Shown here piece by piece: positions 27,286 to 54,712 of a DNA stretch of 64,000 nt. Made by a program: the position numbers and the translations under genes. The notes below the pieces were generated by a model that saw only the letters and a list, made by a program, of their open reading frames with translations, made no database searches and had not been told where the DNA came from. The stretch is from an uncultured Verrucomicrobiae bacterium (GTDB taxonomy: Bacteria > Verrucomicrobiota > Verrucomicrobiia > Chthoniobacterales > Chthoniobacteraceae): contig CAVYKI010000012.1 in the NCBI GenBank assembly GCA_963769025.1, positions 512,001 to 576,000 of the forward strand, given 5' to 3'. Position 1 is the first letter of the stretch; each line of letters opens with the position of its first letter.

Positions 27286-27311
27286 GAGCAGGCAATGAGG
27301 GCAATTATTCC
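27286..27311 (-). promoter_or_regulatory. ECF promoter motif
   Basis: GGAATAA-N15-GCTC. Confidence 0.75.
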
Positions 27312-27390
27312 ACGGCAATGCTCAGCGCCCCGTGGTGGGTGCGCTTACGACGTCACGCAGTGGTCGGATAGCGGTGAGATCTAAGGCTGG

Positions 27391-28167
27391 TTATTTCTCC
27401 GTTTGAGCTGCTTGGTTTCTTCCGGGCTGCAGCCCGGAAGCTGTGAGCTGGTTTCGGACGAGACAGGCTGTGGCTCGCAAGAGCGACGGGCAGTAATGTT
27501 CTACCCGGAGCAAAGAGGGCAGGTCGTCCACGTCCTCCATCCGCGCGAAAGTATGAACGCTCATGCCGTGCGAGCGGATGTTGCGCTGCGTCTGTTCGAA
27601 GACCGCCGGTGTGCTCCACGCGATGTCGTCGAAGACAAACGCGTGTGAGCCGCTAAGGCCGATGAGCACGTAACCGCCATCGGTTGCTGGGATGAGGACG
27701 AAACTGAAGGAGTGCAACGCGGCAGCCGCATCGCGAAGGCGTTCGGTCGTGAGTTGTGGGCAGTCGCCGCCTGCAAAGAGAATCTCCCTCGCGCCGCGAG
27801 TGATTGTGTCCGCCAAAGTCGCGCGTAGGCGTGCGCCGAGGTCGCCTTCGGCTTGGGGATGAAACGTCGTTTGATCCGGCAGCAGCGGACCTAGCCAGTC
27901 GTGCATTTCCGCTCCAGACTCGGCTGGTGTGAAGTGAACCTCCACGCGCCAATCGCAAGGGACTTCCGCTGCTTGATGCTCGACGAGGCGGCGATAGACC
28001 TGCACAGCGGCGTCGTTGCCGATGCTCGCGGCGAGGCGGGTTTTCACTGCGCCGGGACGAGGCGCTTTCAGCATCAGGCAGAGTGTCGGGGGCATGTGCA
28101 GGAGTTCTGGTTTCAAGGCGAGATCAAGCAGGTTGCGCATCATCAAGTCGATTGGCGGGGCGTTCAT
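27391..28167 (-). CDS. TIGR04282/DUF2064-type glycosyltransferase (rSAM/arsenosugar-associated)
   Basis: KAPRPGAVKTRL, QAEGDLGARL, GGDCP, PATDGGYVLIG, WST, DVDD. Confidence 0.88.
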   Translation of the reverse strand: MNAPPIDLMMRNLLDLALKPELLHMPPTLCLMLKAPRPGAVKTRLAASIGNDAAVQVYRRLVEHQAAEVPCDWRVEVHFTPAESGAEMHDWLGPLLPDQTTFHPQAEGDLGARLRATLADTITRGAREILFAGGDCPQLTTERLRDAAAALHSFSFVLIPATDGGYVLIGLSGSHAFVFDDIAWSTPAVFEQTQRNIRSHGMSVHTFARMEDVDDLPSLLRVEHYCPSLLRATACLVRNQLTASGLQPGRNQAAQTEK

Positions 28168-29477
28168 GTGCCGGGTTCAGGGATGGCTATGGTGCGCGTG
28201 GCGCATAATTCGGATCGCCCACGAGGGTGACGGTAGAGGCGCCTCGAGAGGAAGCCCGCGACGAAGGGCAGCCAGATGAGCGCGCGCTCCCACCAGGACA
28301 GCGTCCAGACTTCGCCGATGCTGATGCGGTGGCACATGATGAAGTAAAGCGTGCCGGTAATGTTCAGCGCGATGGTGCCGCGATTGCGCGTGAGCGCGGC
28401 GAAAGGCAGCAGCCAGGTGAAATACCAAGCGTGCATCATGGGCGAGAGCAGGAAAGCGGAGAACAGAAACCACTCGGCGGCATTGGCGAAGCGGCGGCAG
28501 CGGAAGATCGCGACGACCCACGCGGCGAGCAGCGGGGGAACGAAGAGGGTGTTGATCCACTCCTTGCCGGTCACCGCATCGAGCACCGCGGGGATAAGTT
28601 CCGCGCTCCGGGCGTAACGTGCGAATTCCATCGGTGCGAGGCTTGTCGTCCACTCGCCGCTCCACGAGCAGACCATGGCCCAAGAGAGCGCGAAGGGCAG
28701 TGCGCCCGCAGCCATGAGGAGCGAGGAGCGCCGGAAGCCTGCGGTTGTCGATGTCTGCCACGCCATCCACGCGACGAGCGGCAGGGCCAGCCACTTGAAG
28801 GACACGGCGGTGCCTGCGAGCGCGACGGCGAGGAATGCGCGGCGTGGATTTGCCTCCCAAACGAGCCATGAGCCGACCAGCGCGAGGACGAACAGGCTGT
28901 CGTAATGGCCGCCGCCGGCGAAGCAGTAGAGCACGAGCGGATTCCACGCATACACCAGCGCGCGCCTGGTGCCGAAGCGTCGCGCAAGCAGTCCGCAAAC
29001 GGCGAGGTCAGCAATGGCGAAGACCGCTTTCATGCCCGTGACACCCGCGCCGATCCGCGTGAGGACGGCGAAGGTCATTTCCGACAGCGGCGGATAAATC
29101 GCCGTGCAATGCGGATGGCCGATCTTCACCCAAGTCGCATCGTGCAGCAGGCTCAGTTCGGGCGCGCTTGGCGGATACACGTAAGGATTGATGCCGCCGC
29201 TGAGCGCGTGCCCTTCCCACAGATAGCGGAAAATGTCGTCGCCCGGCTCCATCGCGAGCAGCGCAAGCCGCAGGCCCGCCCCGACGATCCAAAACATCGC
29301 GACAGAAAATTTGCCAACGCGCAGCGCAGCGAGATAGCCGAGGCTCATCGTGGCCAAGCCGGTGAGAAACGGCGGCACTTCTCCGAAGTGGAGCAAATCG
29401 CCATGCGGCAGAATCCACGCCGCTCCCGTGAGCAGCAGCGCGAGCGCCGCGACTTGCCAGACCCGCACCGCGTTCAT
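28164..29477 (-). CDS. GT-C membrane glycosyltransferase (GT87/DUF2029-like)
   Basis: DDIFRYLWEG..GINPY, IYPP, YAWNPLV, GHYD, HAWY. Confidence 0.8.
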   Translation of the reverse strand: MNAVRVWQVAALALLLTGAAWILPHGDLLHFGEVPPFLTGLATMSLGYLAALRVGKFSVAMFWIVGAGLRLALLAMEPGDDIFRYLWEGHALSGGINPYVYPPSAPELSLLHDATWVKIGHPHCTAIYPPLSEMTFAVLTRIGAGVTGMKAVFAIADLAVCGLLARRFGTRRALVYAWNPLVLYCFAGGGHYDSLFVLALVGSWLVWEANPRRAFLAVALAGTAVSFKWLALPLVAWMAWQTSTTAGFRRSSLLMAAGALPFALSWAMVCSWSGEWTTSLAPMEFARYARSAELIPAVLDAVTGKEWINTLFVPPLLAAWVVAIFRCRRFANAAEWFLFSAFLLSPMMHAWYFTWLLPFAALTRNRGTIALNITGTLYFIMCHRISIGEVWTLSWWERALIWLPFVAGFLSRRLYRHPRGRSELCATRTIAIPEPGT

Positions 29478-30233
29478 GCGCCGCGCTGTCCTCCGTGCCA
29501 GAGCCGGCGCAGCCAAAGCCGCACGATGGTCGAGAGGATCACGCTGCCCGCGCGCAGCGTGCCCATGATGGCGCCGGAGATTTTCGAGCGGTCCGCCCTG
29601 CCGCCGCCGGTAGCGCACGGGCACTTCGACGATGCGCAGTTTTTCCTCCACGGCGCGCACCTGCATTTCGACGGTCCAGCCAAAGCCACGGTCGCGCATG
29701 GCGATGCGGTCGAGCGCGTCGCGGCGGATGAGGCGGAGCGGACCGAGGTCGGGGTAGCGGTGGCCCCAGCCGAGTTCGATGAGCGCGACGGCGAGCGCGT
29801 TGCCGAAATTTTGTTGCGGAGTCATCGCGGCACGATTCGCCGGCAGACCGCGGCGGTTGCCGAGCACGAGTTCCGCACCGAGCGCCCCGGGCAAAAAGCC
29901 ACTGCAATTCGCCCAAGTCATCGCTCCCATCCGCGTCGCAAAAGAGCACCCATTCCACATCGTCGTCGAAGTCGATCATCCCGCGCCAGCAGGCGGCGCC
30001 GTAGCCGCGCCGCGGTTCGCTCAACACATCCGCGCCGTGCTGCACGGCGACTTGCGCGGTGCGGTCGCGGCTGCCGTTGTCCACCACGCGGATGCGCTCC
30101 AGGCCCAGATGCCGCAAGTCCGTGAGCACGCGCGGCAGTGCGGCTTCCTCATTGAGCGCGGGGATGATGCGCACGTCCGGGCGACGATTTGATCGGCGCG
30201 GGCTTCGGGTTTGGAATGGACGACGGACAGCAT
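29474..30233 (-). CDS. GT2 glycosyltransferase (polyprenol-phosphate hexosyltransferase-like), frameshifted
   Basis: IIPALNEE, VVDNGSRDRT, GYGAAC, FCDADGSD, DLGP, GWTVEMQ, SKISG. Confidence 0.8.
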
Positions 30234-30241
30234 GACGATGC

Positions 30242-30267
30242 GAGCGGAAGTGCAGCTTGATTATTCC
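30242..30267 (-). promoter_or_regulatory. ECF promoter motif
   Basis: GGAATAA-N15-GCTC, 8 bp from the GT2 ATG. Confidence 0.75.
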
Positions 30268-30286: not shown

Positions 30287-30368
30287 GGAATAAAGCAGCT
30301 GCACCCGGCGTCGTGAGTCCGAGTCCGTTGTGGGAAATGCGGAGAATAAAACGGCGTCCGTGCCGCTC
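30287..30368 (+). promoter_or_regulatory. Two tandem ECF promoter variants
   Basis: GGAATAA-N15-CGTC (30287) and AGAATAA-N15-GCTC (30343). Confidence 0.6.
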
Positions 30369-30377: not shown

Positions 30378-31129
30378 ATGAACCTCGATTCGATCTTCCG
30401 CCGATGCACTGCACTGGCTTTCGCTCTGCTCCTCACTTCGTGCGCCAACGCGGCCGATCTTCCCGTGGCCGGGAACGCTGTATCGAAGGAATACGCGGGG
30501 TTGCTCAAGACTTACGTCACAGCGGGTGGGGTGCGCTATGCGGCGTGGAAGCAGAACGCTGCGGACCTGGCCGCGCTTAAAAGCGTGGCGGATTTTTATG
30601 CCGGCACGCTGCCGCCGAAGGATCGCGACGCCTCGCTGGCCTGGCACCTCAACGCCTACAATTCGTGGATTCTGCACAACATCCTCGCGAAGTATCCGAC
30701 CAAGGGGCCGCTCGTCGGGGAGCCGCTTTTTTTCACGGCAACCGGATCACCATCTCCGGGCGCAAGATGAGCTTCAACGACTTGGAGCAAAAGGTCATCC
30801 GCCCGACGTTCAAGGAACCGCGCGTGCATTTCGCGCTGAACTGCGCGAGCGCGAGCTGCCCGCCGCTCGCCTCGCGACCGTTCGATGCAGCGACGCTGAA
30901 CGACCAGCTCGACCAGCTCACACGCGCTTTCATGAACGTAAATCCGCGGGCCATTATAGGCAGTGGCGGAAGCATCGCGCTCTCGAAAATCTTCGACTGG
31001 TATAAGGACGACTTCGCCGCAGCGGGTGGCTCGGTGGCGTTCATCAACCGCTATCGCAAGGAACCGCTCCCGGCGGGTGCGAAGGTGAAGTTCATGGACT
31101 ACGACTGGTCGCTGAACGAAACGAAGTGA
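30378..31129 (+). CDS. DUF547 domain lipoprotein (frameshift in T7 run ~30730)
   Basis: LNAYN, LEQKVIR..EPRVHFALNCASASCPPL, SKIFDWY..DF, YDWSLN. Confidence 0.85.
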
Positions 31130-31146: not shown

Positions 31147-31172
31147 GGAATAAATCGCCGCGCCAGCCGCTC
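31147..31172 (+). promoter_or_regulatory. ECF promoter motif (probable autoregulation)
   Basis: GGAATAA-N15-GCTC upstream of the sigma gene. Confidence 0.8.
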
Positions 31173-31186: not shown

Positions 31187-31732
31187 ATGGATTTCGAAGC
31201 CATCGTCAGCCTCTATTACGAGGACCTTTACCGGTTTGCGTTCAGCCTCGCGCGCAACCGCGACGAGGCGTGCGACCTGACGCAGCAGACCTACGCCGTG
31301 TATGCGGAGAAGGGCGGACAGGTGCGCGAGCAGGCGAAGGTCAAGAGCTGGCTCTTCACCACGCTTTACCGCGAGTTCCTGCGGCTCCGCGAACGCGGAC
31401 GCCGCCTCGTGAGCATGGACGATGAGGAAACCAACGTGCCGGAGCAGATGGCCGCGTCGGACACCGAGCGGTCGGCGGAGCACGCCGGGCTGCTCGACAT
31501 CCTCGCAAGCCTCGACCAGGGGCACCGCGAAATTCTGACACTCTTTTACCTCCAGCAGCACGCTTACAAGGACATCGCCGGAATTCTCGAAGCGCCCATC
31601 GGCACGGTGATGTCGCGCCTTTCCCGAGCCAAGGAAGCGCTCCGCAAGAAACTCGACGCCGTCACCCAAGAAAAAGGAATAATTATCATCCCCATCGACT
31701 CGAATCAGAAACGCCCCGCGAAAAATGGATAA
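31187..31732 (+). CDS. ECF RNA polymerase sigma factor
   Basis: LYRFAFSL..EACDLTQ..KSWLF (region 2); YKDIA.IL..PIGTVMSRLSR (region 4). Confidence 0.92.
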   Translation: MDFEAIVSLYYEDLYRFAFSLARNRDEACDLTQQTYAVYAEKGGQVREQAKVKSWLFTTLYREFLRLRERGRRLVSMDDEETNVPEQMAASDTERSAEHAGLLDILASLDQGHREILTLFYLQQHAYKDIAGILEAPIGTVMSRLSRAKEALRKKLDAVTQEKGIIIIPIDSNQKRPAKNG

Positions 31733-32474
31733 CGACCGCGCCAAAATACTTCTCAGTGCCTACCGCTCCGACGGAGCGGATGCGAGCGACCCGGTTTTTG
31801 CCGAAGCGCTGGCGCAGGCGGAGCGCGACCCGGAGCTGACGCGCTGGTTTGCCGAGGAACGCGCGCTCGATGATCGGATGCACGCCGCGCTTCGTTCGGT
31901 CCGTCCGCCCGCGAATCTCAGGGACGCCCTGCTGCTCACGGCGAAGGTGAGCCGGATGCCTACGCCGCGCGCCTGGTGGACGCGCCCCGCGTGGCTCGCC
32001 ATCGCCGCGGCCATCGTGCTTTTCGCCGGGCTGGCCTTTGTTGCGCTGCGCCCGCATTCCACGCCTTTCACGATCGCCGGAGTGACTTCGGAAATCGGGC
32101 GTCTGCACCGCGCGGAGCGCATCTCGCTCGGCGCGATGACCAGCGACCCGGAGCAAATTCAGCGCTGGCTGAAAGAGCACGGTGGCCCGCACGATTTCAC
32201 CGCACCCACCGGGCTGACCAGCCAGATGCGCCTCGGCTGCCAGGTGCTCGACATCAACGGCAACAAAGTCTCGCTCGTTTGCTTCCAGATCGAAGGCGGG
32301 CAGTTGGTGCATCTGCTCGTCATGGATCGCCGCCGCCTCGCCGACCCGCCGGTCATCGGGAAACCGATCATGCTCCAGGAAGGTGAACTGGCCTTTGCCA
32401 CTTGGTCCGAGGGCGACCGCACCTACGTCCTGGCCAGCAAGATCGGAGCAGACGAGCTGCGCAAATTCCTGTGA
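31725..32474 (+). CDS. Membrane anti-sigma factor (DUF3379-like)
   Basis: Overlaps the sigma gene; helical N-terminus, one TM, periplasmic GC..SLVCF. Confidence 0.8.
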   Translation: MDNDRAKILLSAYRSDGADASDPVFAEALAQAERDPELTRWFAEERALDDRMHAALRSVRPPANLRDALLLTAKVSRMPTPRAWWTRPAWLAIAAAIVLFAGLAFVALRPHSTPFTIAGVTSEIGRLHRAERISLGAMTSDPEQIQRWLKEHGGPHDFTAPTGLTSQMRLGCQVLDINGNKVSLVCFQIEGGQLVHLLVMDRRRLADPPVIGKPIMLQEGELAFATWSEGDRTYVLASKIGADELRKFL

Positions 32475-32524
32475 CGCCCGGCTGGCGGGAGCGAAGGCGC
32501 GCATTTCACTCCAAGTAGCGGGAC

Positions 32525-32550
32525 GGAATAAACCCCCGCGCCGTTTGCTC
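32525..32550 (+). promoter_or_regulatory. ECF promoter motif
   Basis: GGAATAA-N15-GCTC, 9 bp from the ATG. Confidence 0.75.
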
Positions 32551-32559: not shown

Positions 32560-34098
32560 ATGCTCGCGGACTTCGCTGCCGCCGTCGGCACTTTTGCCGG
32601 CGGCCTCTATCTCATCGCCTCACTCCTGCTCGTGGCCTACGTGGCCAATGGCTACGTGCTGCTCGCGCGCTGTCTGTGGACGCGCGGGCGCTCGGAGCGC
32701 GAGCGGCGGAGGCTGTTCGCGGAAGGCGCGAAAATGCTGGTGCTTGGCCGTGGCGAAGGCACGGCGATTGTGACGCAGATTCCGCTCTACAACGAGGCGA
32801 CCGTCGCCGGGCGCATCATCCGCGCGGCGGCGGCGATGGAGTGGCCGCACGGACGGCACACGGTGCAGGTCCTCGACGATTCGACGGACGAAACACGCGG
32901 CATCGTGGATGCGGTGGCTGCGCAGTTGCGCGCGGAGGGCGCGGATGTCGTGGTGGTGCGCCGCGCGGATCGTGCGGGCTTCAAGGCCGGCGCGCTCGCC
33001 CACGGGATGACGCTGTGCGAGGCGGAGTTCATCGCAATTTTCGACAGCGACTTCGTGCCGCCGCCGGACTTTCTGCTGCGTGCCGTGCCCGCGCTCGTCG
33101 CCGACCCGAAGCTCGGCTGGGCGCAGGGCCGCTGGACTCATCTCAACGCCGACGACAACGTGCTGACTCGCGCGCAAGCGGCGGGCATCGACGCGCACTT
33201 CATCATCGAGCAACAGGCGCGCGCCGCGGGCTGGTTCATGAATTTCAACGGCACCGGCGGAGTCTGGCGTCGCCGCGCGATCGAGGACGCCGGCGGCTGG
33301 AGCGACGCGACGCTGACCGAAGACCTCGACCTTTCCTACCGCGCGCAACTCCGCGGCTGGCGCGGCCTCTTTCTCCCGGAAGTCGCCGTGCCGGGCGAAG
33401 TGCCCGCCGACGCGGCGGCGTTCAAGTGCCAGCAATTCCGCTGGGCGAAAGGCTCGCTGCAAACGGCCCTGCGGCTGCTCCCCGCCGTGCTGCGCTCGGA
33501 GCGTCCGATCGTGAAGAAAATCCAGGCCGTCTTTCATCTCACGAATTACCTCATGCACCCGCTGCTCGTCCTGCTCGTGCTGATGACGCCGTGGATGGCG
33601 CTCGCCTCGCCCACGCGCGGTGCGCTTTTCGCGTCGAGCGGATGGGCGGTGTTCGTCGCCGCCACGGTGTCCGGCTTCACCTACCTCTGCGGTCAGGCGA
33701 TGCTCGGTCATCCGTGGCGCGTCGCCTTTGCGCGGCTCAACAGCCTGCTCGCCGCCGGCACCGGACCAGCGCTCACGAACGTGCGCGCGGCAATCGAGGC
33801 TCTCGTCGGCCACCGCAGCGAATTCGTGCGCACGCCAAAACAAGGCGGCTTCAAAGCGCACCGCTACCGCGCCCGCGCCATCACGCCGCCGTGGCTCGAT
33901 GCTGCGTTTGGAATTTACGCCATCGCGTCCGTCATCATCTGCATCGCGCAAGGCTGGCTGGCCGCCGTGCCGATGCTCATTTTCGCCGCCAGCGGCAGCC
34001 TGTGCATGGTGCTGAAAGGCGACGCCACTTCGCCCGAGCCTCGCGTGCATTCGGAAGGGCGAACCGTTGCAGAAATGGATGCGGCCGTCGAAGTCTGA
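32560..34098 (+). CDS. Processive GT2 (cellulose synthase/CslA-like) glycosyltransferase
   Basis: QIPLYNE, DDSTD, GFKAGAL, FDSD, TEDLD, QQFRWAKG. Confidence 0.9.
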   Translation: MLADFAAAVGTFAGGLYLIASLLLVAYVANGYVLLARCLWTRGRSERERRRLFAEGAKMLVLGRGEGTAIVTQIPLYNEATVAGRIIRAAAAMEWPHGRHTVQVLDDSTDETRGIVDAVAAQLRAEGADVVVVRRADRAGFKAGALAHGMTLCEAEFIAIFDSDFVPPPDFLLRAVPALVADPKLGWAQGRWTHLNADDNVLTRAQAAGIDAHFIIEQQARAAGWFMNFNGTGGVWRRRAIEDAGGWSDATLTEDLDLSYRAQLRGWRGLFLPEVAVPGEVPADAAAFKCQQFRWAKGSLQTALRLLPAVLRSERPIVKKIQAVFHLTNYLMHPLLVLLVLMTPWMALASPTRGALFASSGWAVFVAATVSGFTYLCGQAMLGHPWRVAFARLNSLLAAGTGPALTNVRAAIEALVGHRSEFVRTPKQGGFKAHRYRARAITPPWLDAAFGIYAIASVIICIAQGWLAAVPMLIFAASGSLCMVLKGDATSPEPRVHSEGRTVAEMDAAVEV

Positions 34099-34147: not shown

Positions 34148-34750
34148 ATGATGAAAACAATCCTGCTCACCGCGCTGTCGCTCTTCACTGCGACCTCACT
34201 TCTTGCCGAAAACCCCGCCGCAGGCCTGGCGGTCGGCGCGACCATCCCGGACGTCACGCTCCGCACCGACAAGGACAAGGCATTCAACCTGCGCCGGGAG
34301 GTGGCTGAGAAACCGGCGGTGCTCATTTTCTATCGCGGCGGATGGTGTCCATTCTGCACGCGGCATCTCTCGGCGCTCGCGAGCATCGAGAAGGATCTCA
34401 CCGCCGCCGGGTTTCAGCTCCTCGCAATCAGCACGGACGCGCCGGCGAAGCTGCGCGAAAAGCCCGACTATCAGGCGCTGACCTACACGCTGCTATCCGA
34501 CAGCACGATGGATGCGGCCAAGGCGTTTGGCATTGCCTTCAAAGTGACCGATGACGTGCTCGCCAAATACAAGGGCTTCGGCATCGATCTCGAAGCCGCC
34601 TCGGGCCAGACGCATCATCTCCTGCCGCATCCCGCCGTCTTCGTCGTCGATCAGGCGGGCATCATCCGCTTCGCGCATGTGAACCCCGATTACAAATCGC
34701 GGCTCGACCCCGCGAAAATCCTCGAAGCCGCGCGCGACGCAAAGCCGTGA
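34148..34750 (+). CDS. Secreted peroxiredoxin-like (AhpC/TSA) protein
   Basis: Signal peptide; FYRGGWCPFC. Confidence 0.85.
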   Translation: MMKTILLTALSLFTATSLLAENPAAGLAVGATIPDVTLRTDKDKAFNLRREVAEKPAVLIFYRGGWCPFCTRHLSALASIEKDLTAAGFQLLAISTDAPAKLREKPDYQALTYTLLSDSTMDAAKAFGIAFKVTDDVLAKYKGFGIDLEAASGQTHHLLPHPAVFVVDQAGIIRFAHVNPDYKSRLDPAKILEAARDAKP

Positions 34751-34775: not shown

Positions 34776-35185
34776 ATGCTCGCCCGCGCACTCAAAGTCC
34801 CGCTCATCGTCGGCACGCTGTTGAATCTCATCAACAGCGGCGACGCGCTCCTCGCCGGGCACCTGCCGCCAAGCGCGTCGCCGAGCTCATCGACCAGGGC
34901 GAACTCACCGCCACTGCCAACGACAACCTCAGCCCGATCAACGCCGAGAACATCCTCGAAGGCCACCGCCGCCTCGAATCTGGCAGAAGCATCGGCAAGC
35001 TCACCATCTCAGGGTGGAAATGAGCCCGATCTCTGACAAACCAAACAACGACCACTATGACCGCACTAACACTAACCATCGTCGCCAACATCAAGGCCGA
35101 CTCGGACAAGATCGATTTTGTGAAAGCAGAACTGCTCAAGCTTATCGATGTCACCCCCGCCGAAAAGGGCTGCATCAATCGCTCC
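34776..35185 (+). pseudogene. Three fused fragments: NrtS-like N-terminus, Zn-alcohol-dehydrogenase-family C-terminus, ABM monooxygenase N-terminus
   Basis: ALKV..IVGTLLNLINSGD; SPINAENI..HRRLESGRSIGKL; LTIVANIKA...AEKGCIN. Confidence 0.55.
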
Positions 35186-35206
35186 GCGCGCCATCCCTAT
35201 TCCACC

Positions 35207-36564
35207 ATGAATCTTCTTTCGATCACCGCTGCCTTTCTTGCCCTGTGTCTCTCAATCCGCGCCGAGGAGACCGCCGCGACGAAGCTGCTCAAGGAGCGCT
35301 CGAAGGCGCTGCTCCCCACCGTCACGCAGGTTTCCAAGTCGGTGTATTGCGCTTCCGGCTACAGCCCGGCGAATATCTCCATGATCGTCGGAACCAATGG
35401 CATCGTGATTGTGGATACCGGGATGTTTCCCGATGACGCGCGAGCGGTGATGAAGGAGTTCCGCAAGGTCACTCAATTGCCGGTCACAGGAGTCATCCTT
35501 ACCCACGGTCACGGCGATCATACGGGCGGTTTGAGTGCGTTTATGGAGGCCGGCCCGAACGGATCGAAGCCAGCCGTCTATGGTCGCTCGCCTTTCAATA
35601 CGGAGGGCGACGCGTTCAAGGCGGCGGGACTGACGATCAACGGCATCCGCGGGGCTCGGCAGGGAGGCTTCCTGCTGCCGCCGGAGAAGCGCATCAACAA
35701 CGGAATCGCCGCGGCGTCTATCCTCCGAAGGATCGGAACGCTTTCGACAGCGGCGCCGCCCAGCCGACCGATACGTTTGGCGACGGACGGAAGAAGATCG
35801 CGGTGGCAGGCTTGGAATTGGAGTTGGTCGCGGCACCCGGCGAGACTTCCGATGAGCTTTACGTGTGGTTTCCGGCGGAGCGAGTCGTCTTTACCGGCGA
35901 CAACTTCTATCGCTCATGGCCGAACATCTATGCCATCCGGGGCGCCGCCTATCGCGATGTGCTCGAGTGGATTCACAGCCTCGAGATGATGCTCGCCGAA
36001 AAACCGGCGCACGCCGTCCCGGGACATACCCTCCCCGTGGTCGGCGAGGCGGAGACGATGGAGGTGCTGGGGAACTACCGCAAAGCCATTCGCTACGTCT
36101 TCGACGCCACGATTGCCGGGATGAACAAAGGAATGACGCCCGACGAACTGGTGCACACGGTGAAACTGCCCCCGGAACTCGCGTCGCAGGATTACCTCCG
36201 CGAATTCTACGGGAACGTCGAGTGGGCGGTCCGGTCCATCTTCGCGGGAACTCTGGGATGGTTCGACGGCAATCCGACGCATCTCTTTTCGCTCCCACCA
36301 GCGGAGGAGGCAAAGCGCATGGCTGAACTCGCGGGCGGTGTTGAGCAACTCCAGGCTCGTGCGCGCAAGGCTCTGGAGGCGGGTGACGCCCAGTGGTGCG
36401 CGCAGTTGTGCGACCATCTCATCGCGCTGGACCCGAAATCGAAGGTGCCGAAATTACTAAAGGCAGATGCGCTCGAAGTGCTCGCGGAACATTTACTGAC
36501 TGCCACCGGCCGGAACTACTACCTTACCGTTGCGCAACAGCTTCGTGCCGACGCTGGCAAATAG
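35207..36564 (+). CDS. Alkyl/aryl-sulfatase (SdsA1-like MBL fold), frameshift ~35715
   Basis: THGHGDHTGG, APGET, GDNFY..PNIYAIRG, PGH, GWFDGNP, RNYYL. Confidence 0.85.
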
Positions 36565-36779
36565 GAGCCTCATTCTCGTTCTCGCCGCCGCCCGCCGGCG
36601 TTTTGCCCGGCACTACGTTCCGGACGACGACGTGCTGCTCGTGTGTGCGCGCTTTTTCTAAGCCTGCGAAGTTCGTGCGCCAGCCGCCACGATCACGCCG
36701 GCTTGGATCAGCTCGCGCTGGCGAACTGTGGATCGAGCGGTGTGTGGGCGATGTAGTTGGTGTAGTTCGACATCGTTTT

Positions 36780-36932
36780 GATCCCGACGTGCAGGCGGAG
36801 GAGGAGCGCTGCTTCGGCCGGCACCAGACTGCGGATGCGCCGCAGAAACGCGATGCGTTCACCCCGGACGAAACCGCCTACATCGCTGCGCGCGACAGCT
36901 TCTACATGGCCGCGAAGAACAGCAACGGCTGA
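36780..36932 (+). pseudogene. Pyridoxamine-5'-phosphate-oxidase-like N-terminal fragment
   Basis: FTPDETAYIAARDSFYMA. Confidence 0.45.
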
Positions 36933-36950
36933 GCCTACAACTGAGGCGGA

Positions 36951-38457
36951 TCAGCCGTTCGTCTCAATGGGTTTGTGGTGGTCTGCATGGGTCTTCACAT
37001 GGGATGTCGATGAAAGTGCGCTCAACAAAACAGCGCGAATGGTTTCTTCCGCATTGGCGTGGGCCAGCACGCTCACTTGATCCCAACCACACAGTTGGGT
37101 GGAGCCCTTGGGAACCAGCAGGTCTTTTCCCCGTGTGATCAAGGTAATTACCGAACCGGGGGGAAGCTTCAATTCGGCGATTGTCAGTCCAATCAGACTT
37201 TGAGGGCCGGGAAGTTCGACTACGATAATATCCAAGTCAGTTGCGGCCATGGTAACGAGTTCCAGCTTGAACAGGGGATTTGGACGCGCGGGAACGGTCA
37301 GGTTGAGGCAGCGTGCCAAGGCTCCCAGTCGTGCTTCCCTGCACCGCGACCGACAGGAGAACCGCGAAAAACACCAGATTGAATATCTCTTCTCCCACGG
37401 CAATGCCGGCCGCCATGGGATAGGTGGCCAGGACGATCGGCACCGCACCCCGGAGCCCCGCCCAGGAGATGAAGACCTTGTTTTTCCACCCTAAACGCAT
37501 CCCAACTGTGGCGAGCCATACCGCGAAGGGGCGAGCCACAAAGGTCAACACCAGGAAGAGCAGAATGCCTTCAAACCAAATGCCCGCCCATTGACGGGGA
37601 AAAACCTGAAGGCCCAGCAGGACGAACATGCCGATGTTGGCCATGGTGGAAAGGGCAGAAGAAAAATTCGCCACGCCCTGCTTGTGCACAAAGGAACGGT
37701 TGCCCATCACATAGCCGGCAATAAAGACCGCCAGCATTCCGCTGGATCCGATCAGTTGGGCCAGACCATAGACCAGGAGGACGATTGCCAGGGTGAGCAC
37801 GTAGTAGTGGCCGCGGTCCTGGGGTGTCAGGCAATTGAACAACCACAGGGCTCCGCGAGCCATCAGCCAGCCCAGCAAGGGCGCTGCTCCAAATTGCCAG
37901 AGAAAGGTCATGGCCATGACCGGCAGGGCTGGGCGACCGACGGTGAGTGCCTCCACCACGGCCACGGTGAGCAGGATCGCCATCGGATCGTTGGCGGCGC
38001 TTTCGATTTCGACCGTGGATGACAGTTTCTTCGACAAGGATTGCCGCCGTAGAATTGAGAAGATCGCCGCCGCGTCCGTGGAAGAGACGATGACTGCCAG
38101 CAAGATGGCCTTGTCGAACGCCCAGCCGAAAATCCCATACAGCACACCGAAGGTCGCCGCCGCAGTCAGGGCGACGCCCCAGGTGGCCAGCCCCCCGGCG
38201 GGCAACGCCACTTCCTTGAAGTCAGACCGCTTGGTGGAGAAGCCCCCGTAAAACAGAATGAAAACCAGGGCCAGGTTTGCGACCCGGTTGGTGAGGTCAA
38301 TGTCGTCAAAGTGCCAGAGATTCAAAACGTCGCTGCCGAAACAAATCCCGGCGCCAAGCGCGATCAGGATGACCGGGACACTCCAGCGGTCCAGCCACAC
38401 TGCGGCCAGGACAACGGCAATCAGGATAACTGGCCCAACAATATAGACAACGTCCAT
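36951..38457 (-). CDS. cvrA: K+/H+ antiporter (NhaP2/CvrA) with TrkA-C domain, frameshift ~37330
   Basis: SSTDAAAIF, ESAANDPMA, WAGLRGAVPIVLA, C-terminal VPKGST. Confidence 0.88.
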
Positions 38458-38519
38458 GGGTCTTCTTTAGCTGCTGCGATTCATACTCTTTGAGGATACC
38501 CGCTCTGCCGCGTCAGGCA

Positions 38520-38690
38520 TCACGCTTCTCCGACAATGCAACGCGCACCTCGCTTGTAGGTGCGATACGCATAATTCGAGGCGGAGCGCCCGGCCTTTGG
38601 CAGCAGCCCGACCCGCTCGTAATAATGTATCGTCTGCACGCCCACGCCGGCGTGCGCCGCCAGTTCGCTAACCTTCAAGAGAGATTCGAT
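38520..38690 (-). pseudogene. MerR-family HTH fragment
   Basis: VSELA..AGVGVQTIHYYERVGLLP..RSASNY. Confidence 0.65.
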
Positions 38691-40102: not shown

Positions 40103-40218
40103 GCGTGCGCCGCAAGCAGATTCATCCGGCGCTGTGATGGGTTTCAATCCGGGGACTTTCATGGCAAACAGGTCGCTGTCGTGTCCTTCGTATTCATGGT
40201 GTTCGATTGGCAAGGTTG

Positions 40219-43857: not shown

Positions 43858-43867
43858 CTGCGAGCGC

Positions 43868-46498: not shown

Positions 46499-46604
46499 GA
46501 TCTTGGGGAGAAAGGTCGGTCCTTTACGTGCTCCACTTCCACGTAGAGCGCACGCAGTTTCGGCGCGTCAAGCGCCACGGCGCAGATATGGAACGAAGCG
46601 AGTT

Positions 46605-47999
46605 TCATGGAATGAACTGAAACGAAAATAAGTCCGCAGCCTTCATCGCGAAACGCAGGCGCACCGGGTGAGAGGCGTGCTTGCTCAAGTCGGCGCCGCT
46701 TTTCCAGGTGACTGCGTGCTCGGTGAAGTCTCCGGTGATGGGCTGGCAGTCGGCGAGGGAGAATCCTGGCAATGCCTTGCCATCCGCGTCTTGAAGCTCC
46801 ACGCGGGTTTCGCCGGGGCTGACGAGATTCAGCATGAGCTTCGATCCCGTGAAGGTCATCGGTTTGGTGATCACGGTGGCAGGGTCAGAGGCATGGAGTG
46901 CGACGAAGCCATCGAGGCGATAGGTGAATCGGCGCAAACGTCCCGGCACGGGACGGCGGTAGCCCTCGGTCGCATAGCAGGACAACTCGTCGGGCTTGCC
47001 TGGCAGCGAGAGCAGGCCCCAAGTCATGTAGTTGCTGCGGTTGCCACTGCGATCCTGCGGTGCGGTCTCGGGGATGATGGCGTCGTTGAAGCGGCGGAAG
47101 TTCAGTCCGTCGCGGCTGTTCATGAAGATGGGTTCAACGTGCTCACCTTTGGGGAAGAAACGCGTGGGAAATCCAATGAGAAGATGCGGCGCGCGGAAGT
47201 AGGGCTGGATGGCATTGGTGTAGAGATGCTCCTGCGGTGTGCTCTCGGGATATTGGAGAAACTGCGGTGCCTCCCAGGTAATGAGGTCCTTCGAAGTGGA
47301 CGTGCCAATGGCGCGCACGGGGGTGTTGGAGATGCGCCAGTAGGTGCGGTATTCGCCGCGATGTGCGTCGAAAAAGACGAGGTTCTGTGAGTCGAAGGTG
47401 CCCTTGCCGGTGAAAGATTTTGGCGATGCGACTGCCCAGTGAATGCCATCCGCCGACTGGTGCAGCACCAACGCGCCGCCGACCGCCTTGTAGCGCGCTT
47501 CGGGCGGACAGGCGGGATTGCTGTCTTTGAAGACCGTGAAGTTGTGCGCGCCCTTGCCGACCCAGACGATGTTGTTGGCCTTGGAACCTTCGAACTCGTG
47601 GATGCCCAGCTCGGGCTTTCGCCAAGTGATGCCGTCTCTGCTCTCAGCGTAACAGGTTACTTGAGGCGCCAGCGTCCCTTTGGAATGCGGCACCTCATTC
47701 GAGCCGCGATAATACATGCGATACAAGTCACCATCCTGGAACACGGTGAAATAGGCCGAGGTCTTCCCCTCCCAAGGCGCATCCGTAGTGAACACGACTT
47801 CATGAGGCTGCGGCCGCTGCACTTTCAAGGCAGCGCCGTCCATGCTGGCGATAAGATAATCATCCACGAACAACTCGCGCCGCGACCCGATGTCAATGGT
47901 GGCGAGTGTCGTCGTCGCTTGTGCGAGAGCGAGGGGCGAATGTTTTGCGGCAATCATTGATGCCGTAACAGTGGCGATGAATTGGCGGCGGGTCTTCAT
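46605..47999 (-). CDS. Tat-exported five-bladed beta-propeller glycoside hydrolase-like protein
   Basis: TRRQF Tat motif; RELFVDDY, YAESRDG..W.KP.LG, FDSQN, RLDGFV. Confidence 0.75.
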   Translation of the reverse strand: MKTRRQFIATVTASMIAAKHSPLALAQATTTLATIDIGSRRELFVDDYLIASMDGAALKVQRPQPHEVVFTTDAPWEGKTSAYFTVFQDGDLYRMYYRGSNEVPHSKGTLAPQVTCYAESRDGITWRKPELGIHEFEGSKANNIVWVGKGAHNFTVFKDSNPACPPEARYKAVGGALVLHQSADGIHWAVASPKSFTGKGTFDSQNLVFFDAHRGEYRTYWRISNTPVRAIGTSTSKDLITWEAPQFLQYPESTPQEHLYTNAIQPYFRAPHLLIGFPTRFFPKGEHVEPIFMNSRDGLNFRRFNDAIIPETAPQDRSGNRSNYMTWGLLSLPGKPDELSCYATEGYRRPVPGRLRRFTYRLDGFVALHASDPATVITKPMTFTGSKLMLNLVSPGETRVELQDADGKALPGFSLADCQPITGDFTEHAVTWKSGADLSKHASHPVRLRFAMKAADLFSFQFIP

Positions 48000-48123
48000 A
48001 GTGGTGAGTATTCTATTCTTTGTTCAGGTCCGCAACGTCTGTGGTTGCAAGCCCATGCCTCGCGGGAGGTAGCGAAAAGACCTGCCGGAAGTTGAATGGC
48101 ATGGTGAATCGGAGGCATTCTAG

Positions 48124-48269
48124 GGAACCGCTGATTTAATCAGCGGTTCGCATCTTCGCGTGATTTTCAGCTCTCCAAGATGGCGTAAGAAGGATTTTGA
48201 ATTCGGAGGAAGTTTTTGATGGTCGAAGCCGGGTTGAATTTTCTGGATGTCGATTAAATCAGCGGTTCC
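48124..48269. mobile_element. 146-bp IS5-family-like MITE / internally deleted IS
   Basis: Perfect 18-bp TIR GGAACCGCTGATTTAATC, flanked by CTAG/TTAG. Confidence 0.75.
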
Positions 48270-48615
48270 TTAGCGATTTTGCTTCGCAAGACTGGCCACT
48301 TCGGCGGCCTTGCGCGTGCGCGCGTCGGTGATCCATTCGAGGGCACGGGCAAGATTGGCCTCGGCCTGCTTGGTGTCCTTGGTGATGCCGTAGGCGTGGC
48401 CTCTCGCAAAATAGCCGTCGCCGCCTTCAATCTCATGTATTTCGTCGGCGCGCTGATTTGCCTCGCCGAGACCGGGCGAGCGGAGCCCGCATCGGGGCCG
48501 CCGCGAGGGAATGAGTCGTGAAGCGGCGCGCGCCCTGCGGCCTGAGTTTCATTAACGCGACCTGGAGCACGCGCTGCCGCAGCAGGGAGGAAAAGGAGGG
48601 AATGGCCGCGGAGAC

Positions 48616-48641
48616 GGAATAAACGTCAGCGCCGTTCGCTC
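48616..48641 (+). promoter_or_regulatory. ECF promoter motif
   Basis: GGAATAA-N15-GCTC, 13 bp from the ATG. Confidence 0.8.
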
Positions 48642-52427: not shown

Positions 52428-53312
52428 TCACGGGGGGCGGGCATCTATGAACGCCGAGACGGACACAGCCAGCCCAACTCCATCCAAGTGGCGAACCAAT
52501 CGCGGACTTTCGCGGCGGCTTCCTCGTCGCCGGTGTGCGATTTGGCGAAGGCGGACGCGCACGCGCCTTCGAGCGAGGCTCCGGCATTGAGCGCGGTGAG
52601 CAGCGGAACGCTTCGGGGTCGAGGCGCTTGTAATAAGACGGAGAGATTGACGCGATGGACGGCGAGGTGGATCGGCGTGCGGCTCGGGCGCGCGGCGATG
52701 CGCGGGCCGGCGGCGCGTGACGTGGCGGCGACGGCGTTGCTGAACGTGCCGGTTTCGATCGTGGCTGTCCTTGAGCTTGCGCAGCAGTTCGTCGACCGGA
52801 TGCGCGAGTTCGAGCAGCGTGAGGTAGGGCTGGAGGCCGAGGCGCAGCTGGTCCGCGGGGTTTGCGGCGAGCCTCGCCGGGTCGAGCGGCGGCCGCTCCG
52901 GCTCGTCGAAGGCGATGACGCGCGCCCATTCGACGCGCGCCATGTCGAGGGCGAGGGCGCGTGCGGCGCGGTGAGTTCGGGATGCGCGTTCGGAGGAAAG
53001 CCGGCAGAGCTGGCCCGAGGTCGCGCAGCGTCCACGACGTCGATCCGCACGCTCTCGAGATACGCGACCGCGAGCCGGTCGAACTTCCGCTCGCCGAGCA
53101 CGGCGCGCAGCCCGCGGAAGTCCTCGCCGAAACGAGCCGAGCAGCCGCCACCAGTACTGCTGGTTGTAGATCTGGAGCCGCTCGAAGGACGTGAGCCGGT
53201 CGTTCGGCTTGATGAACCGCGCCGCCACGTCCGCGGCGGGCGAGCCGTCTTTCCAGCGTCGGCTGCATGCCGTCGTCCGGCAGCGAGCGGGCGCATCACG
53301 GCGGCGGGCCAT
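52428..53312 (-). CDS. DUF2063 (BufC/HvfC-like) RiPP partner protein, frameshifted
   Basis: [35 protein letters not shown]; directly downstream of DUF692. Confidence 0.75.
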
Positions 53313-54207
53313 CAGCCGCTGGACTTCCGGCCGAGGCGATCGCGCGCGTTACGCGGCGAGCGTCGCTGGCATCGGGCAGAAATCGGTTGGCCTTGAGCGC
53401 CTCGCGATGCACTTCGTCGAAGCTCGGGAATGCGGTCGTCCCATTCGAGCAGCGTGGCGGTGCGGCCGCAGCGCTGCGATGGCGTGCGCGTAGAGCTTCC
53501 ACACGGGATCGAGCACCGGATGATCGTGCGTATCGAGGATGTAGCGCTCGAACTTCGTGTGGCCGGCGATGTGGATCTGCGCGACGCGCTCGCGCGGGCA
53601 CGGCGTCGAGGTAGTCGTACGGATCGAAGCCGTGGTTCTTCGAGGAGACGTAGATGTTGTTCACGTCGAGCAGGATTCCGCAGTCGGCGCGCTCGACGAC
53701 TTCGCTGAGGAATTCCCACTCGGTCATCTCGCGAGACGTGGAACTCCGCGTAGCTGCTCACGTTCTCCACCGCGACGGGGACTCCGAGAAAGTCCTGCAC
53801 CTCGCGGATGTTGCGCGCGGTGCGCTTCGACCGCCTCCCACGTGTAGGGCATCGGCAGCAGGTCGTGCGTGTAGCGGCCGTCGACGCTGCCCCAGCAGAG
53901 GTGGTCGGAGAGCCACGGCGTCTTCGTGCGCTTGGTCGAGCGCCTTGAGCTTGCTGCAGATGGTCGCGGTTCGGCCGCGCGGCGTTGCCGAAGTACATCG
54001 AGACGCCGTGCTGCACGACGCGGTACTGCTCGAGGATCTGGTCGAGCACGTGCGAGCGGGCGGCCCGCCATCGACCATGTAGTTTTCCGAGATGATCTCG
54101 AACCAATCGACGACCGGCTTCTTCTCGAGGATGTGCTGGTAGTGCGGGATGCGCAGGCCGATGCCGATGCCGTAGTCGGTGAAGCCGTTGAAGCGGGTGG
54201 CGGGCAT
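53312..54207 (-). CDS. DUF692 multinuclear non-heme iron oxidase (MNIO; BufB/MbnB-like), frameshifted
   Basis: [69 protein letters not shown]. Confidence 0.9.
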
Positions 54208-54313
54208 GGGGAAAATGCGATGGCGACTGCGATTGGGCGCACGGCGATCACCGATCGTGACTCGCGAGCGGGCTCCGGCGCGATGCGGAGCCAGAGCCTC
54301 GATCGGGGTCTGG

Positions 54314-54625
54314 TTACTTACAGCGTCGTGTGCGACCGGCTTGCCGTCCTTCACGGCGCAGCCGCCCTTGCCTTTGCAGGAGTTCTTGCCGGCGCAGCCG
54401 TTGTCGCCGCGTCTTGCAGCCGCCCTTGCCCTTGCAGGAGTTCTTGCCTTTGCAGTCGTGGGTTTCGCCTTTCTTTTCGTCGGCGAGGACGCCGGCCTGC
54501 TGGCTGTCGGCATTCTTCTTGAACGCCGTGCCGTTATTCGAGGCGGCATTGGCTTTGGCGGTAAAGCCGCCCATGAGGATGCCCGCGAGCGCAGCGCCAG
54601 CGAGCAGAGTCTTCGTGTTTTTCAT
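54314..54625 (-). CDS. Signal-peptide-bearing Cys-rich RiPP precursor (bufferin BufA2-like), 1-nt frameshift ~54410
   Basis: Sec signal then [13 protein letters not shown] and [13 protein letters not shown] repeats; immediately upstream of DUF692. Confidence 0.82.
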
Positions 54626-54686
54626 TTGGTGTTGTGTACTTTGGTTTTGGTTTTAAACGACGCGGAATGCGGCGTTCGGGCGATCA

Positions 54687-54712
54687 GAGCAGACAGCCTC
54701 GGGAATTATTCC
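54687..54712 (-). promoter_or_regulatory. ECF promoter motif
   Basis: GGAATAA-N15-GCTC upstream of the precursor. Confidence 0.8.

Follow-up and report, generated by a model that had tools for sequence, protein, structure and literature searches.

The DNA analysed here (called the window throughout) is a stretch of 64,000 nucleotides, C12:512001-576000, from the assembly of an uncultured Verrucomicrobiae bacterium (G000; 5,336,811 bases in 13 contigs). Within it lies an integrative element of ~31.4 kb (called the island for simplicity), which encodes a sigma factor of the extracytoplasmic function (ECF) type and an adjacent anti-sigma factor and carries nine copies of a promoter-type motif, GGAATAA-N15-GCTC or close variants of it, in front of genes that include glycosyltransferases, a peroxiredoxin, an ArsM-like methyltransferase and a bufferin precursor. 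From sequence, we consider it very probable that these parts make up an autoregulated ECF sigma/anti-sigma regulon of ECF26-like promoter type that lies whole on the island. Genes were called from Pfam and NCBIfam profile scans, with bits quoted against the cut-offs of the models, and sites were scored with a position weight matrix (PWM) trained on 43 sites near sigma orthologs in other genomes, the window being excluded. Other genomes are given as G numbers and loci in them as L numbers.

The regulator pair, its predicted sites and the island ends

The ends of the island, its integrase, the regulator pair and the sites are as follows:

24370-24392, no strand: attL, left copy of an imperfect direct repeat, GCGTTGTGATGAA[A/G]CGC[A/G]CGGAC
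24466-25806, plus strand: tyrosine integrase, 446 aa; Pfam Phage_integrase 32.3 bits (cut-off 27.1), weak XerD-like NCBIfam matches
27286-27311, minus strand: predicted promoter site 1, GGAATAA-N15-GCTC, PWM score 26.9; 68 nt before the next ATG
30242-30267, minus strand: predicted promoter site 2, exact motif, PWM score 26.1; 8 nt before the ATG at 30233
30287-30312, plus strand: variant site, GGAATAA-N15-CGTC
30343-30368, plus strand: predicted promoter site 3, AGAATAA-N15-GCTC, PWM score 19.7 (eighth in the genome); 9 nt before the ATG at 30378
31147-31172, plus strand: predicted promoter site 4, exact motif, before the sigma gene; 14 nt to its ATG
31187-31732, plus strand: ECF sigma factor, 181 aa; Sigma70_r2 25.6 bits (cut-off 24), Sigma70_r4_2 45.1 bits (cut-off 25.7)
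31676-31701, plus strand: site 5, GGAATAA-N15-ACTC, within the sigma gene near its 3' end; the anti-sigma ATG follows after 23 nt
31725-32474, plus strand: anti-sigma factor, 249 aa; N-terminal anti-sigma domain, one transmembrane helix, periplasmic domain resembling the C-terminal domain of RseB
32525-32550, plus strand: predicted promoter site 6, exact motif, PWM score 26.9; 9 nt before the ATG at 32560
48616-48641, plus strand: predicted promoter site 7, exact motif, PWM score 28.7; 13 nt before the ATG at 48655
54687-54712, minus strand: predicted promoter site 8, exact motif, PWM score 28.5; 61-nt leader
55757-55779, no strand: attR, right copy of the direct repeat

A preliminary description of this DNA had claimed exact motifs at sites 1, 2, 4, 6, 7 and 8 and variants at 30343 and 30287, all between open reading frames (ORFs) and aimed at the next gene. 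We recovered these eight with the positions, strands and placement given above; the ninth, 31676-31701(+), had been overlooked. The six exact copies in the window compare with 0.03 expected, and none of 100 dinucleotide shuffles gave six; in the whole 5,336,811-base assembly the exact motif occurs at these six sites only, with all 66 motif positions intact (66/66). Spacers of 12-20 nt other than 15 yielded zero or one match each genome-wide. When one mismatch was allowed, the window gave three added matches, at 30343(+), 31676(+) and 10683(-). The last lies outside the island, scores below 12 bits and was taken as chance. Genome-wide, one-mismatch scans in eight classes (-35 positions 1, 2, 6 and 7 and all four -10 positions) returned 12 matches in total, of which the island holds only 30343 and 31676. 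With 30287, the count comes to nine sites (six exact and three variants), all within the ~31.4 kb between the repeats.

The PWM gave the same picture. Its consensus, including an extended -10 element, is GGAATAA(A)-N15-nCTCnnAT, and the eight top-ranked positions of the genome are the eight nCTC-type sites of the island. Seven of them score 26.1-34.5 bits, site 5 being the highest in the genome (34.5); the eighth, 30343, at 19.7 bits barely exceeds the best non-island site at 19.4 bits. That site, C3:184125(-), reads GGAAAAA...CTTCTCAT and lies ~6 kb from a resident arsenic-type cluster described below. A scan of the island for further sites hidden by indels (spacers of 13-17 nt, one mismatch) returned only a weak match at 42925(-), ~630 nt from the next gene start, which we did not count. 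The earlier claim that the sites lie inside the att-bounded element is thus borne out by both the genome-wide scan and the PWM, the motif is not common at random positions, and every promoter predicted for the island sigma in this genome would lie on the island.

The island itself is bounded by the two repeat copies at 24370 and 55757, and the integrase gene starts 74 nt inside the left one. In a genome of the same genus (G012, locus L108) the corresponding site is empty: DNA homologous to 24035-24391 joins directly that of 55757-55814, and the two segments overlap in a ~22-nt core that the window holds twice. Because the flanks are joined in G012 and the repeat core is doubled in the window, the ~31.4 kb between the copies (~24.39-55.78 kb) is, on this comparison, an insertion, and the att boundary proposed earlier is real. 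An integrase, flanking direct repeats and the empty site of a relative, the marks of an integrative element, are all present. At the att target ARAGORN found no tRNA and there was no Rfam RNA; at gathering thresholds Rfam matched nothing in the window. A 96-nt tRNA-Glu(ctc) reported by ARAGORN at 4927-5022 lies inside a 666-aa TPR-protein ORF and is probably a false positive.

The sigma factor has only the sigma2 and sigma4 regions, the make-up of an ECF (group 4) sigma factor; it scores 70.5 bits on TIGR02937 (cut-off 42.9) and its nearest solved chains are ECF sigmas, while no NCBIfam ECF subfamily matched it over cut-off. G000 has one homolog of it at E<=1e-25, and a related-locus search with the protein returned two loci at 49% identity. 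An imported origin of the sigma gene is suggested by its closest orthologs, which at 50-60% identity belong to other families of the order, the best of the same genus reaching ~47-50%.

The reading frame of the anti-sigma factor overlaps the stop codon of the sigma gene, and in 30/30 loci, L082 of the unpublished genome G194 among them, a homolog of it adjoins the sigma gene. By sequence, DUF3379 gives 32.1 bits, below the cut-off of 33.2, the ZAS motif is absent, and a comparison with the sequences of solved structures gave no meaningful match. The predicted structure is a confident one (predicted local distance difference test, pLDDT, 91.3). Its residues 2-56 superpose on the anti-sigma domains of PupR (Z 5.4), MucA (Z 5.2) and RsiW (Z 5.1), and residues 147-249 on the C-terminal domain of RseB (Z 8.1, root-mean-square deviation 2.8 A over 90 residues; Foldseek E 1.6e-3) and that of MucB (Z 8.0, 2.9 A, 88 residues). 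A Z near 8 is middling by the calibration of the tool, and the RseB and MucB matches, which are interrelated, stand two units above the next row. An alignment of 25 anti-sigmas has C172, C186 and W227 in every sequence and a nearly invariant H196. Modelled as a complex with residues 1-85 of the anti-sigma, the sigma factor gave a score of 0.84, and the best of three controls gave 0.00; at least 89% of contacts agreed between runs, the partner pLDDT was at least 83, and contacts fell on sigma2 and sigma4. The mark for this score is reached by 116/157 solved complexes and 2/215 mismatched pairs, and a pass indicates likeness to solved sigma/anti-sigma pairs of the textbook type rather than binding of this copy. 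The models and the adjacent genes suggest a cognate pair.

Predicted target genes and their reading frames

The genes behind the sites, together with the remaining cargo of the island, are:

26024-27139, minus strand: secreted protein of outer-membrane beta-barrel type, 371 aa, with a signal peptide and Phe as the C-terminal residue
27135-27285, minus strand: 68-nt leader and short ORF copying the bufA leader and signal peptide; 80% identity to 54530-54731(-)
27391-28167, minus strand: TIGR04282/DUF2064 protein; TIGR04282 167.8 bits (cut-off 134), DUF2064 96.7 bits
28164-30233, minus strand: GT2 and GT87-like membrane domain; the GT2 in two frames, with the frame break near 29881
30378-31129, plus strand: DUF547 protein in two frames; DUF547 59.1 bits on the second
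32560-34098, plus strand: processive-type GT2, 512 aa; Glyco_tranf_2_3 102.1 bits, CelA/PgaC-like, below equivalog cut-offs
34148-34750, plus strand: AhpC/TSA peroxiredoxin, SelL-related-like; AhpC-TSA 87.6 bits, SelL_rel_redox 46 bits (below the cut-off of 120)
34800-48600, no strand: cargo without a detected sigma-type site, namely an alkyl sulfatase, a Kef-type K+/H+ antiporter, an LCAT-like lipase, FAD oxidoreductase fragments, a second DUF547 protein, TPR and DUF4838 proteins and a 464-aa protein
48655 to ~52400, plus strand: ArsM-like methyltransferase, DUF5069 protein, PiT-type phosphate transporter and ArsS radical-SAM protein, each over 2-3 frames
52450-54180, minus strand: BufB (MNIO) and BufC (DUF2063) genes, broken into many frames
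54317-54624, minus strand: BufA2-like precursor; signal peptide and two CxxxxxCxxxxxC repeats, with the frame broken between the repeats

The target list of the preliminary description (beta-barrel, TIGR04282, DUF547, sigma/anti-sigma, GT2 with peroxiredoxin, ArsM-like/DUF5069/PiT/ArsS, and precursor with MNIO) stands except for DUF2063, which matches no ORF of the window and is present in the same-genus gene aligned to 52494-53390. The beta-barrel protein had 4848 homologs at E<=1e-10 among 8000 candidates scored, several of them with PF13557 and named 'transporter'; the window copy itself matched neither Pfam nor NCBIfam. The GT87-like call follows orthologous membrane proteins of 430-441 aa that match GT87 weakly. 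Intact DUF547 orthologs stand behind the motif at loci L086, L088, L089 and L095, the last of which also has a TIGR04282 protein of 171.1 bits (cut-off 134).

For the arsenic-type operon the window ArsS (TIGR04167, cut-off 300) appears as fragments of 61.7 and 182.9 bits in two frames, and intact orthologs exceed the cut-off with 430 bits in G219 and 403 bits in G038. Intact ArsM-like orthologs reach 321-332 bits on an arsinothricin-type model (cut-off 500) and 129-139 bits on NF038099 (cut-off 400), under every equivalog cut-off, and on TIGR04283 the window GT2 scores 34.6 against 182; neither an arsenosugar-type ArsM (NF038099) nor a TIGR04283 glycosyltransferase was recognised. The label 'arsenosugar-type' therefore comes from ArsS and TIGR04282 alone, and the pathway is suggested by family names.

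In the bufferin operon, window BufB fragments of 64, 55.7, 38 and 45 bits on NF050167 lie in four frames, none reaching 310 by itself, together with MbnB_TglH_ChrH fragments; the aligned same-genus copy is intact (MbnB_TglH_ChrH 352 bits, DUF2063 59 bits with a cut-off of 27.2), and the BufB ortholog next to the sigma gene in G277 passes NF050167 (346 against 310). Intact same-genus precursors have six Cys residues, and precursor orthologs of other families score 38-39 bits on the BufA2 model NF050166, whose cut-off is 60.

Most target genes are thus frame-broken in the window: three frames for the ArsM-like gene, at least two for ArsS, two for PiT, four for BufB and two each for the precursor, the GT2 and DUF547. 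The preliminary description had the genes and sites right and missed that such breaks are a defect of the whole assembly. Compared with six same-genus copies, 20 insertions (17 of 1 nt, two of 2 nt and one of 11 nt) and five deletions (two of 1 nt) are unique to the window's bufferin operon, none of them a multiple of three in length; the six relatives each have 0-5 insertions and 0-8 deletions of their own, the largest number of deletions being that of the most divergent one. Taken together with an ORF coverage that dips in the window relative to the genome median (64% GC; a measure too crude for frameshift density), these breaks could be read as the mark of a relic, in which the island genes are frameshifted pseudogenes and the promoters drive nothing useful. 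We regard such decay as improbable. At C3:124523-132440 the essential rpoB is in nine frame pieces and rpoC is also split into several, and marker completeness is 83% despite only 13 contigs. Pseudogene decay in bacteria is deletion-biased, and Mira, Ochman and Moran (2001) are said to have found this for real bacterial gene decay, whereas the changes here are mostly 1-nt insertions. At the GT2 frame break, position 29881, contigs from 3/4 public runs examined carry two extra letters; the assembled reads of these runs are short contigs of related organisms, informative at this position and at little else. The letters of the six exact sites are, as noted, all preserved. Because rpoB and rpoC are split likewise and the insertion bias opposes that of decay, we read the frameshifts as long-read assembly errors that occur genome-wide and set the pseudogene reading aside; the intactness of the island genes is thereby neither proven nor disproven. 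With rpoB in nine pieces, any pseudogene or frameshift call in G000 is therefore suspect.

G000 also holds a resident, motif-free set of TIGR04282, ArsS, DUF5069 and ArsM genes at C3:190111-194935, whose proteins are 62-81% identical to the island copies (TIGR04282 only 32%), which suggests that the genome has two differently regulated copies of the arsenic-type set. A 75%-identical paralog of the outer-membrane protein is also present; outside the island we found no paralog of the sigma factor, the anti-sigma factor, the DUF547 protein or the peroxiredoxin.

Three side observations concern the surroundings of these genes. First, a 2455-nt contig of run X4 matches both sides of 32505-32516 but carries 1578 other letters between them, and homology begins again 9 nt ahead of GGAATAA in the GT2 promoter, which gives promoter and gene the look of a movable unit. 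Second, to the right of the island (56563-63959) the chromosomal neighbourhood of the insertion has a sulfur or metalloid flavour: two SoxB/5'-nucleotidase-like genes, an ArsR-family regulator, a thioredoxin-like protein, a methyltransferase and a sulfate permease in two frames. Third, genomes across the genus each contain many copies, 88-100% identical, of a ~72-nt element (21551-21622 and 17811-17882 in the window), with dozens among the matches listed. ARAGORN found no tRNA in it and Rfam gave no match; the element may represent a small mobile repeat or an as yet undescribed small RNA.

Leaders, conservation and the proposed circuit

The GCTC-to-ATG gaps are 8 nt (30242), 9 nt (30343 and 32525), 13 nt (48616) and 14 nt (31147), in agreement with the 8-14 nt given earlier for several sites, and 61 nt (54687) and 68 nt (27286) at the two remaining ones. 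Counted from CTC, the A of the ATG is nucleotide 9 at 30242, 10 at 30343 and 32525, 14 at 48616 and 15 at 31147, and over the window and the ortholog loci together the CTC-to-start-codon gap has its mode at 8-11 nt. Many apparent '2-nt' gaps have a second in-frame ATG at 8-11 nt, the first ATG being the 'AT' of the -10 element. Single-base distances of this kind could be one base off, the assembly carrying many 1-nt indel errors. Promoters of ECF26 type in Sinorhizobium meliloti, mapped by rapid amplification of cDNA 5' ends (5'-RACE), start 9-10 nt past the -10 tetramer in printed strings that end with a lower-case start (passages of PMC6180224), and the Neisseria start site lies 6 nt after an 8-nt -10 motif (passages of PMC2893595). 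Aligned on nCTCnnAT, both spacings predict a start at about the 10th nucleotide after CTC. Because the ATGs lie at or just past this expected start, the mRNAs from 30242, 30343 and 32525 are probably leaderless and those from 48616 and 31147 nearly so.

The bufferin precursor and the outer-membrane gene differ in having CA-rich leaders of 61 and 68 nt. RNAalifold returned no consensus pairs for the long leaders (six ranges, one of which, from L019, lies in coding sequence); folded singly (z-scores from -0.6 to -3.2), the leaders form a small hairpin at the 5' end, behind which the CA-rich tract stays unpaired. These two genes also share their upstream DNA: 54530-54731(-) and the region upstream of the outer-membrane gene have 80% column identity over promoter, leader and ~25 codons (~200 nt), and the stop codon of the copied short ORF overlaps the ATG of the outer-membrane gene. 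This looks like a duplicated bufA promoter-leader module and hence like regulon growth by copying. One might extend the argument and take the whole set of motifs for a recent duplication of a single promoter cassette within the island, some copies being non-functional passengers; the shared block around 27311(-) and 54712(-) and the similar spacers of 32525 and 48616 (repeat family D2, 86% over 29 nt) would fit. That reading is very unlikely in our view: the flanks of the sites resemble one another only in the bufA-derived block, and where orthologous genes of other families have the motif, its spacers are unrelated, with an information content of 0.0-0.4 bit per position. Copying of a promoter module is in any case one way in which regulons grow, so it is no argument against function.

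Site 5 deserves separate treatment, as it lies inside the sigma gene. Its 26 nt encode, in the closest orthologs, GI[IKN]x[IVTL][PS]x[DSPHL]S: residues vary while GGAATA and CTC are kept, and the motif persists in most of these orthologs. In G240, G175 and G151 its counterpart follows the sigma stop codon, and it is intergenic in L064, L066 and L067. Because the residues vary while the motif stays, and because it sits past the sigma stop in G240, G175 and G151, selection appears to act on the DNA here, and we lean towards reading site 5 as the promoter of the anti-sigma gene.

Beyond the window, the motif stands 8-14 nt before the sigma start codon both here and at orthologous loci of several families, as expected for the autoregulation site that the preliminary description had proposed. 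In 18 loci around sigma orthologs (260,165 bp) GGAATAA-N15-NCTC occurs 43 times against a mean of 0.36 in 50 shuffles (maximum 3). In G163 all of the genome-wide matches (5/5) are on the sigma contig, and in G219 7/10 are no more than 17 kb away from the sigma gene. Other genomes have the following directly behind the motif:

G219, G163, G093 and G291: DUF547
G219 and G093: GT87-like membrane proteins
G291: processive GT2
G151, G175, G167 and G176: DoxX and BufA2-like precursors
G219 and G163: FAD oxidoreductase heading a 4Fe-4S/rhodanese unit
G093, G026 and G038: DUF3179
G038: peroxiredoxin
G277: MsrAB
G038 and G219: ArsM-like methyltransferase
G219: ArsS, 430 bits against the cut-off of 300
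G219 and G176: small Cys-rich ORFs

The link between bufferin and arsenic-type genes drawn earlier therefore recurs: the motif precedes the ArsM-like gene in G038, where ArsS (403 bits) follows, and both the ArsM-like and ArsS genes in G219, and a BufA2-like precursor lies directly beside the sigma/anti-sigma pair in G151, G175 and G240. The Cys-rich ORFs of G219 and G176 (L086:7506-7685(-) and L087:2367-2555(-), 60 and 63 aa) match no family and precede GT2 and thioredoxin/peroxiredoxin genes. Same-genus bufferin operons at L012 and L014-L017 have another conserved element in common, TGAAT/TGAAC-~17 nt-CGACTAA, located ~100-150 nt upstream of the precursor ATG, and a further ECF sigma may use it as its promoter; in G002 (L019) a GGAATAA-like element has a shorter spacer.

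Several observations weigh against the proposed regulon. Genomes were grouped by the strength of their sigma homolog, independently of the motif, with the reversed pattern as control and 127 of 300 genome rows counted: the 16 genomes with a sigma ortholog (E<=1e-50) gave 127 matches against 34 for the control (2.15 versus 0.57 per Mb), but the 111 other counted genomes also gave 472 against 217 (1.15 versus 0.53 per Mb). In G151 (10 versus 3 for the control) and G167 (7 versus 5) most matches are scattered and background-like. More distant sigma orthologs keep a KIVPF-like C-terminal peptide without the motif, and the conservation of site 5 may thus be partly at the protein level. The -10 element is nCTC(nnAT) in 8/9 island sites, and the (C)GTC of ECF26 promoters occurs only at 30287. 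The 13.8 kb of cargo at 34.8-48.6 kb have no PWM match above 12 bits and no off-spacing site except the weak 42925(-). Most target genes are frame-broken in their window copies, probably through assembly error. Finally, a search of public sequencing runs found no run recorded as RNA with the window DNA, and none with more than 9% of the sampled words.

Because genomes that have no close sigma ortholog exceed the control too, the motif, or one similar to it, is not exclusive to the island sigma, and the genome-level co-occurrence of motif and sigma factor is moderately supported. This excess also speaks for a different reader of the motif, another ECF sigma or a DNA-binding protein, with the island sigma merely among its targets. 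Other ECF sigmas probably exist in G000, in which a first look found 23 sigma-like candidates, and several ECF26 sigmas of S. meliloti share a GGAATA-type -35 and cross-activate promoters (passages of PMC6180224). We nevertheless find such a reader unlikely: sites and sigma gene travel on one mobile element with no sites elsewhere in G000, families with little else in common have kept the site before the sigma ATG, and the anatomy is that of a sigma-type promoter and not of an operator (two blocks, a fixed 15-nt spacing, one orientation and a fixed distance to the ATG). The single homolog of the island sigma at E<=1e-25 in G000 points the same way.

In the circuit that we infer, the island sigma would itself read the sites, and the start sites, feedback, signal and product follow as predictions. 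At rest, the N-terminal domain of the anti-sigma factor would hold the sigma factor at the membrane. A periplasmic signal would act on the RseB-C-terminal-like domain with its invariant Cys pair and nearly invariant His, and the sigma factor would be released. Free sigma would transcribe its own operon (positive feedback) and, probably, the anti-sigma gene from the site in the end of the sigma gene (negative feedback). It would further drive the DUF547 unit, the GT2/GT87-like/TIGR04282 operon, the unit of processive GT2 and peroxiredoxin, the ArsM-like/DUF5069/PiT/ArsS operon, and the outer-membrane barrel together with the BufA2-like/BufB/BufC bufferin operon, seven units in all. The preliminary description had suggested metal, metalloid or redox stress as the signal and As/Se-sugar or glycolipid chemistry as the output. 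Our best guess for the signal is stress by a thiol-reactive metal, metalloid or oxidant, and for the answer a periplasmic chelator peptide combined with organo-arsenic or glycolipid envelope chemistry. A bolder version, which we consider doubtful, sees a portable stress module: a sensor reading a thiol-reactive metal(loid) through the Cys pair, feedback in both directions, a fully leaderless regulon, arsenic turned into a sugar- or lipid-bound envelope or export product, and a BufA2-type peptide that buffers periplasmic metal. If it held, non-photosynthetic bacteria of soil and sediment would use arsenosugar-type chemistry as an inducible response to envelope stress, one that could pass between genomes as a unit.

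Already at the level of the autoregulated regulon, the locus would offer a whole ECF regulon readable from sequence, with nine sites here and the same target families across several families of the order; such regulons are usually pieced together one gene at a time. It would place the poorly understood DUF547, TIGR04282, DUF5069, DUF3179 and GT87-like proteins in a shared regulatory context with bufferin metallophores and ArsS/ArsM-type enzymes. ECF control of bufferins would then also cover BufA2-type precursors and involve a second family of anti-sigma factors. With a sigma factor, its sensor and every promoter predicted for it on one integrative element, the locus would be a clean case of regulon acquisition in one step, and the predicted leaderless design would be of interest for translation in the verrucomicrobial lineage.

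Comparison with described ECF systems

By promoter likeness, not by a group model, the promoter class appears closest to ECF26. The ECF26 sigmas of S. meliloti recognise a -35 GGAATA and a -10 GT/CGTC, mapped by 5'-RACE, and in passages of PMC6180224 and PMC6527743 the sigma gene of the group is autoregulated and a lipoprotein gene upstream of it is said to be conserved. As described in parts of this literature, RpoE1, RpoE4 and RpoE6 of S. meliloti and SigE of Starkeya novella share with the island a -35 GGAATA(A) that stands ~15-16 nt from the -10 element. Seven-letter GGAATAA is found in 8/9 window sites and, by construction of the search, in 43/43 sites of the ortholog loci. The CGTC of the variant site 30287 is the ECF26-type -10 (passages of PMC6527743), and what remains of the island -10 (T/n, n, A, T) can be aligned with GTCTnAT as printed for S. 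meliloti (passages of PMC6180224). The anti-sigma architecture suggested by model and alignment likewise agrees with the ECF26 description in the latter source. In the parts of the literature consulted, ECF26 regulons are small and chromosomal, with sulfite oxidation targets and a sulfite signal, whereas that of the island is mobile and would have other targets.

The Caulobacter vibrioides sigma factor SigF reportedly uses the promoter GTAACC-N16-CGAA, which is unlike the island's. With NrsF it provides copper-responsive ECF control of the bufferin operons buf1 and buf2 (passages of PMC11626156). Much as proposed for the island regulon, this system combines an ECF sigma with precursors of a ribosomally synthesized and post-translationally modified peptide that are Cys-rich, carry a signal peptide and have MNIO (BufB), DUF2063 (BufC) and DoxX partners (passages of PMC11626156). 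Its anti-sigma NrsF belongs to a different family from that of the island (passages of PMC12452194). A 2025 survey, in the passages of PMC12452194 that treat regulation, places sigma and anti-sigma genes in Buf1 but not Buf2 clusters; on the island a BufA2-like precursor would be the target, and in G151, G175 and G240 such a precursor adjoins the sigma/anti-sigma pair.

The sigmaE/MseR system of Neisseria (NMB2140-2145 with msrAB) is an autoregulated ECF operon with a DoxX-like gene and control of MsrAB (passages of PMC2893595 and PMC3240639). The motif of the island sigma precedes MsrAB in G277 and DoxX in G151 and G175, a likeness to these targets. We take the other genes of the Neisseria sigmaE operon to be DUF692 and DUF2063 genes. 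They are called hypothetical in passages of PMC2893595 and PMC3240639. The Neisseria promoter, GTMAGBWTT-N12-13-CGTCTAAH, is unlike that of the island, and in the same passages neither glycosyltransferases nor arsenic-type genes are named as targets. The island anti-sigma is predicted to be membrane-bound and is without the ZAS motif; MseR, in contrast, is a zinc-binding (ZAS) anti-sigma of the cytoplasm.

Experimental work on arsenosugar biosynthesis has been done in cyanobacteria. Of the genes linked with it (ArsM and ArsS with TIGR04282/TIGR04283 partners), the ArsS orthologs and the window TIGR04282 pass their models, and the methyltransferase and the GT2 do not. Our literature search found no paper that ties arsenosugar genes to ECF sigma control, co-mentions being confined to reviews, and DUF3379 turned up only in an unrelated context. 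The preliminary description had not recognised the combination as described. For the link between arsenosugar genes and an ECF sigma this agrees with our search; relatives of the promoter in ECF26 and ECF-controlled bufferin operons in Caulobacter and Neisseria have already been described.

For the regulator pair itself, the envelope-stress systems sigmaE/RseA/RseB of E. coli and AlgU/MucA/MucB of P. aeruginosa are alike in combining an ECF sigma with a single-pass anti-sigma. In these two bacteria the RseB fold belongs to a protein of its own, which binds the anti-sigma, whereas in the island protein, as modelled, it would be fused to the anti-sigma itself and would carry an invariant Cys pair.

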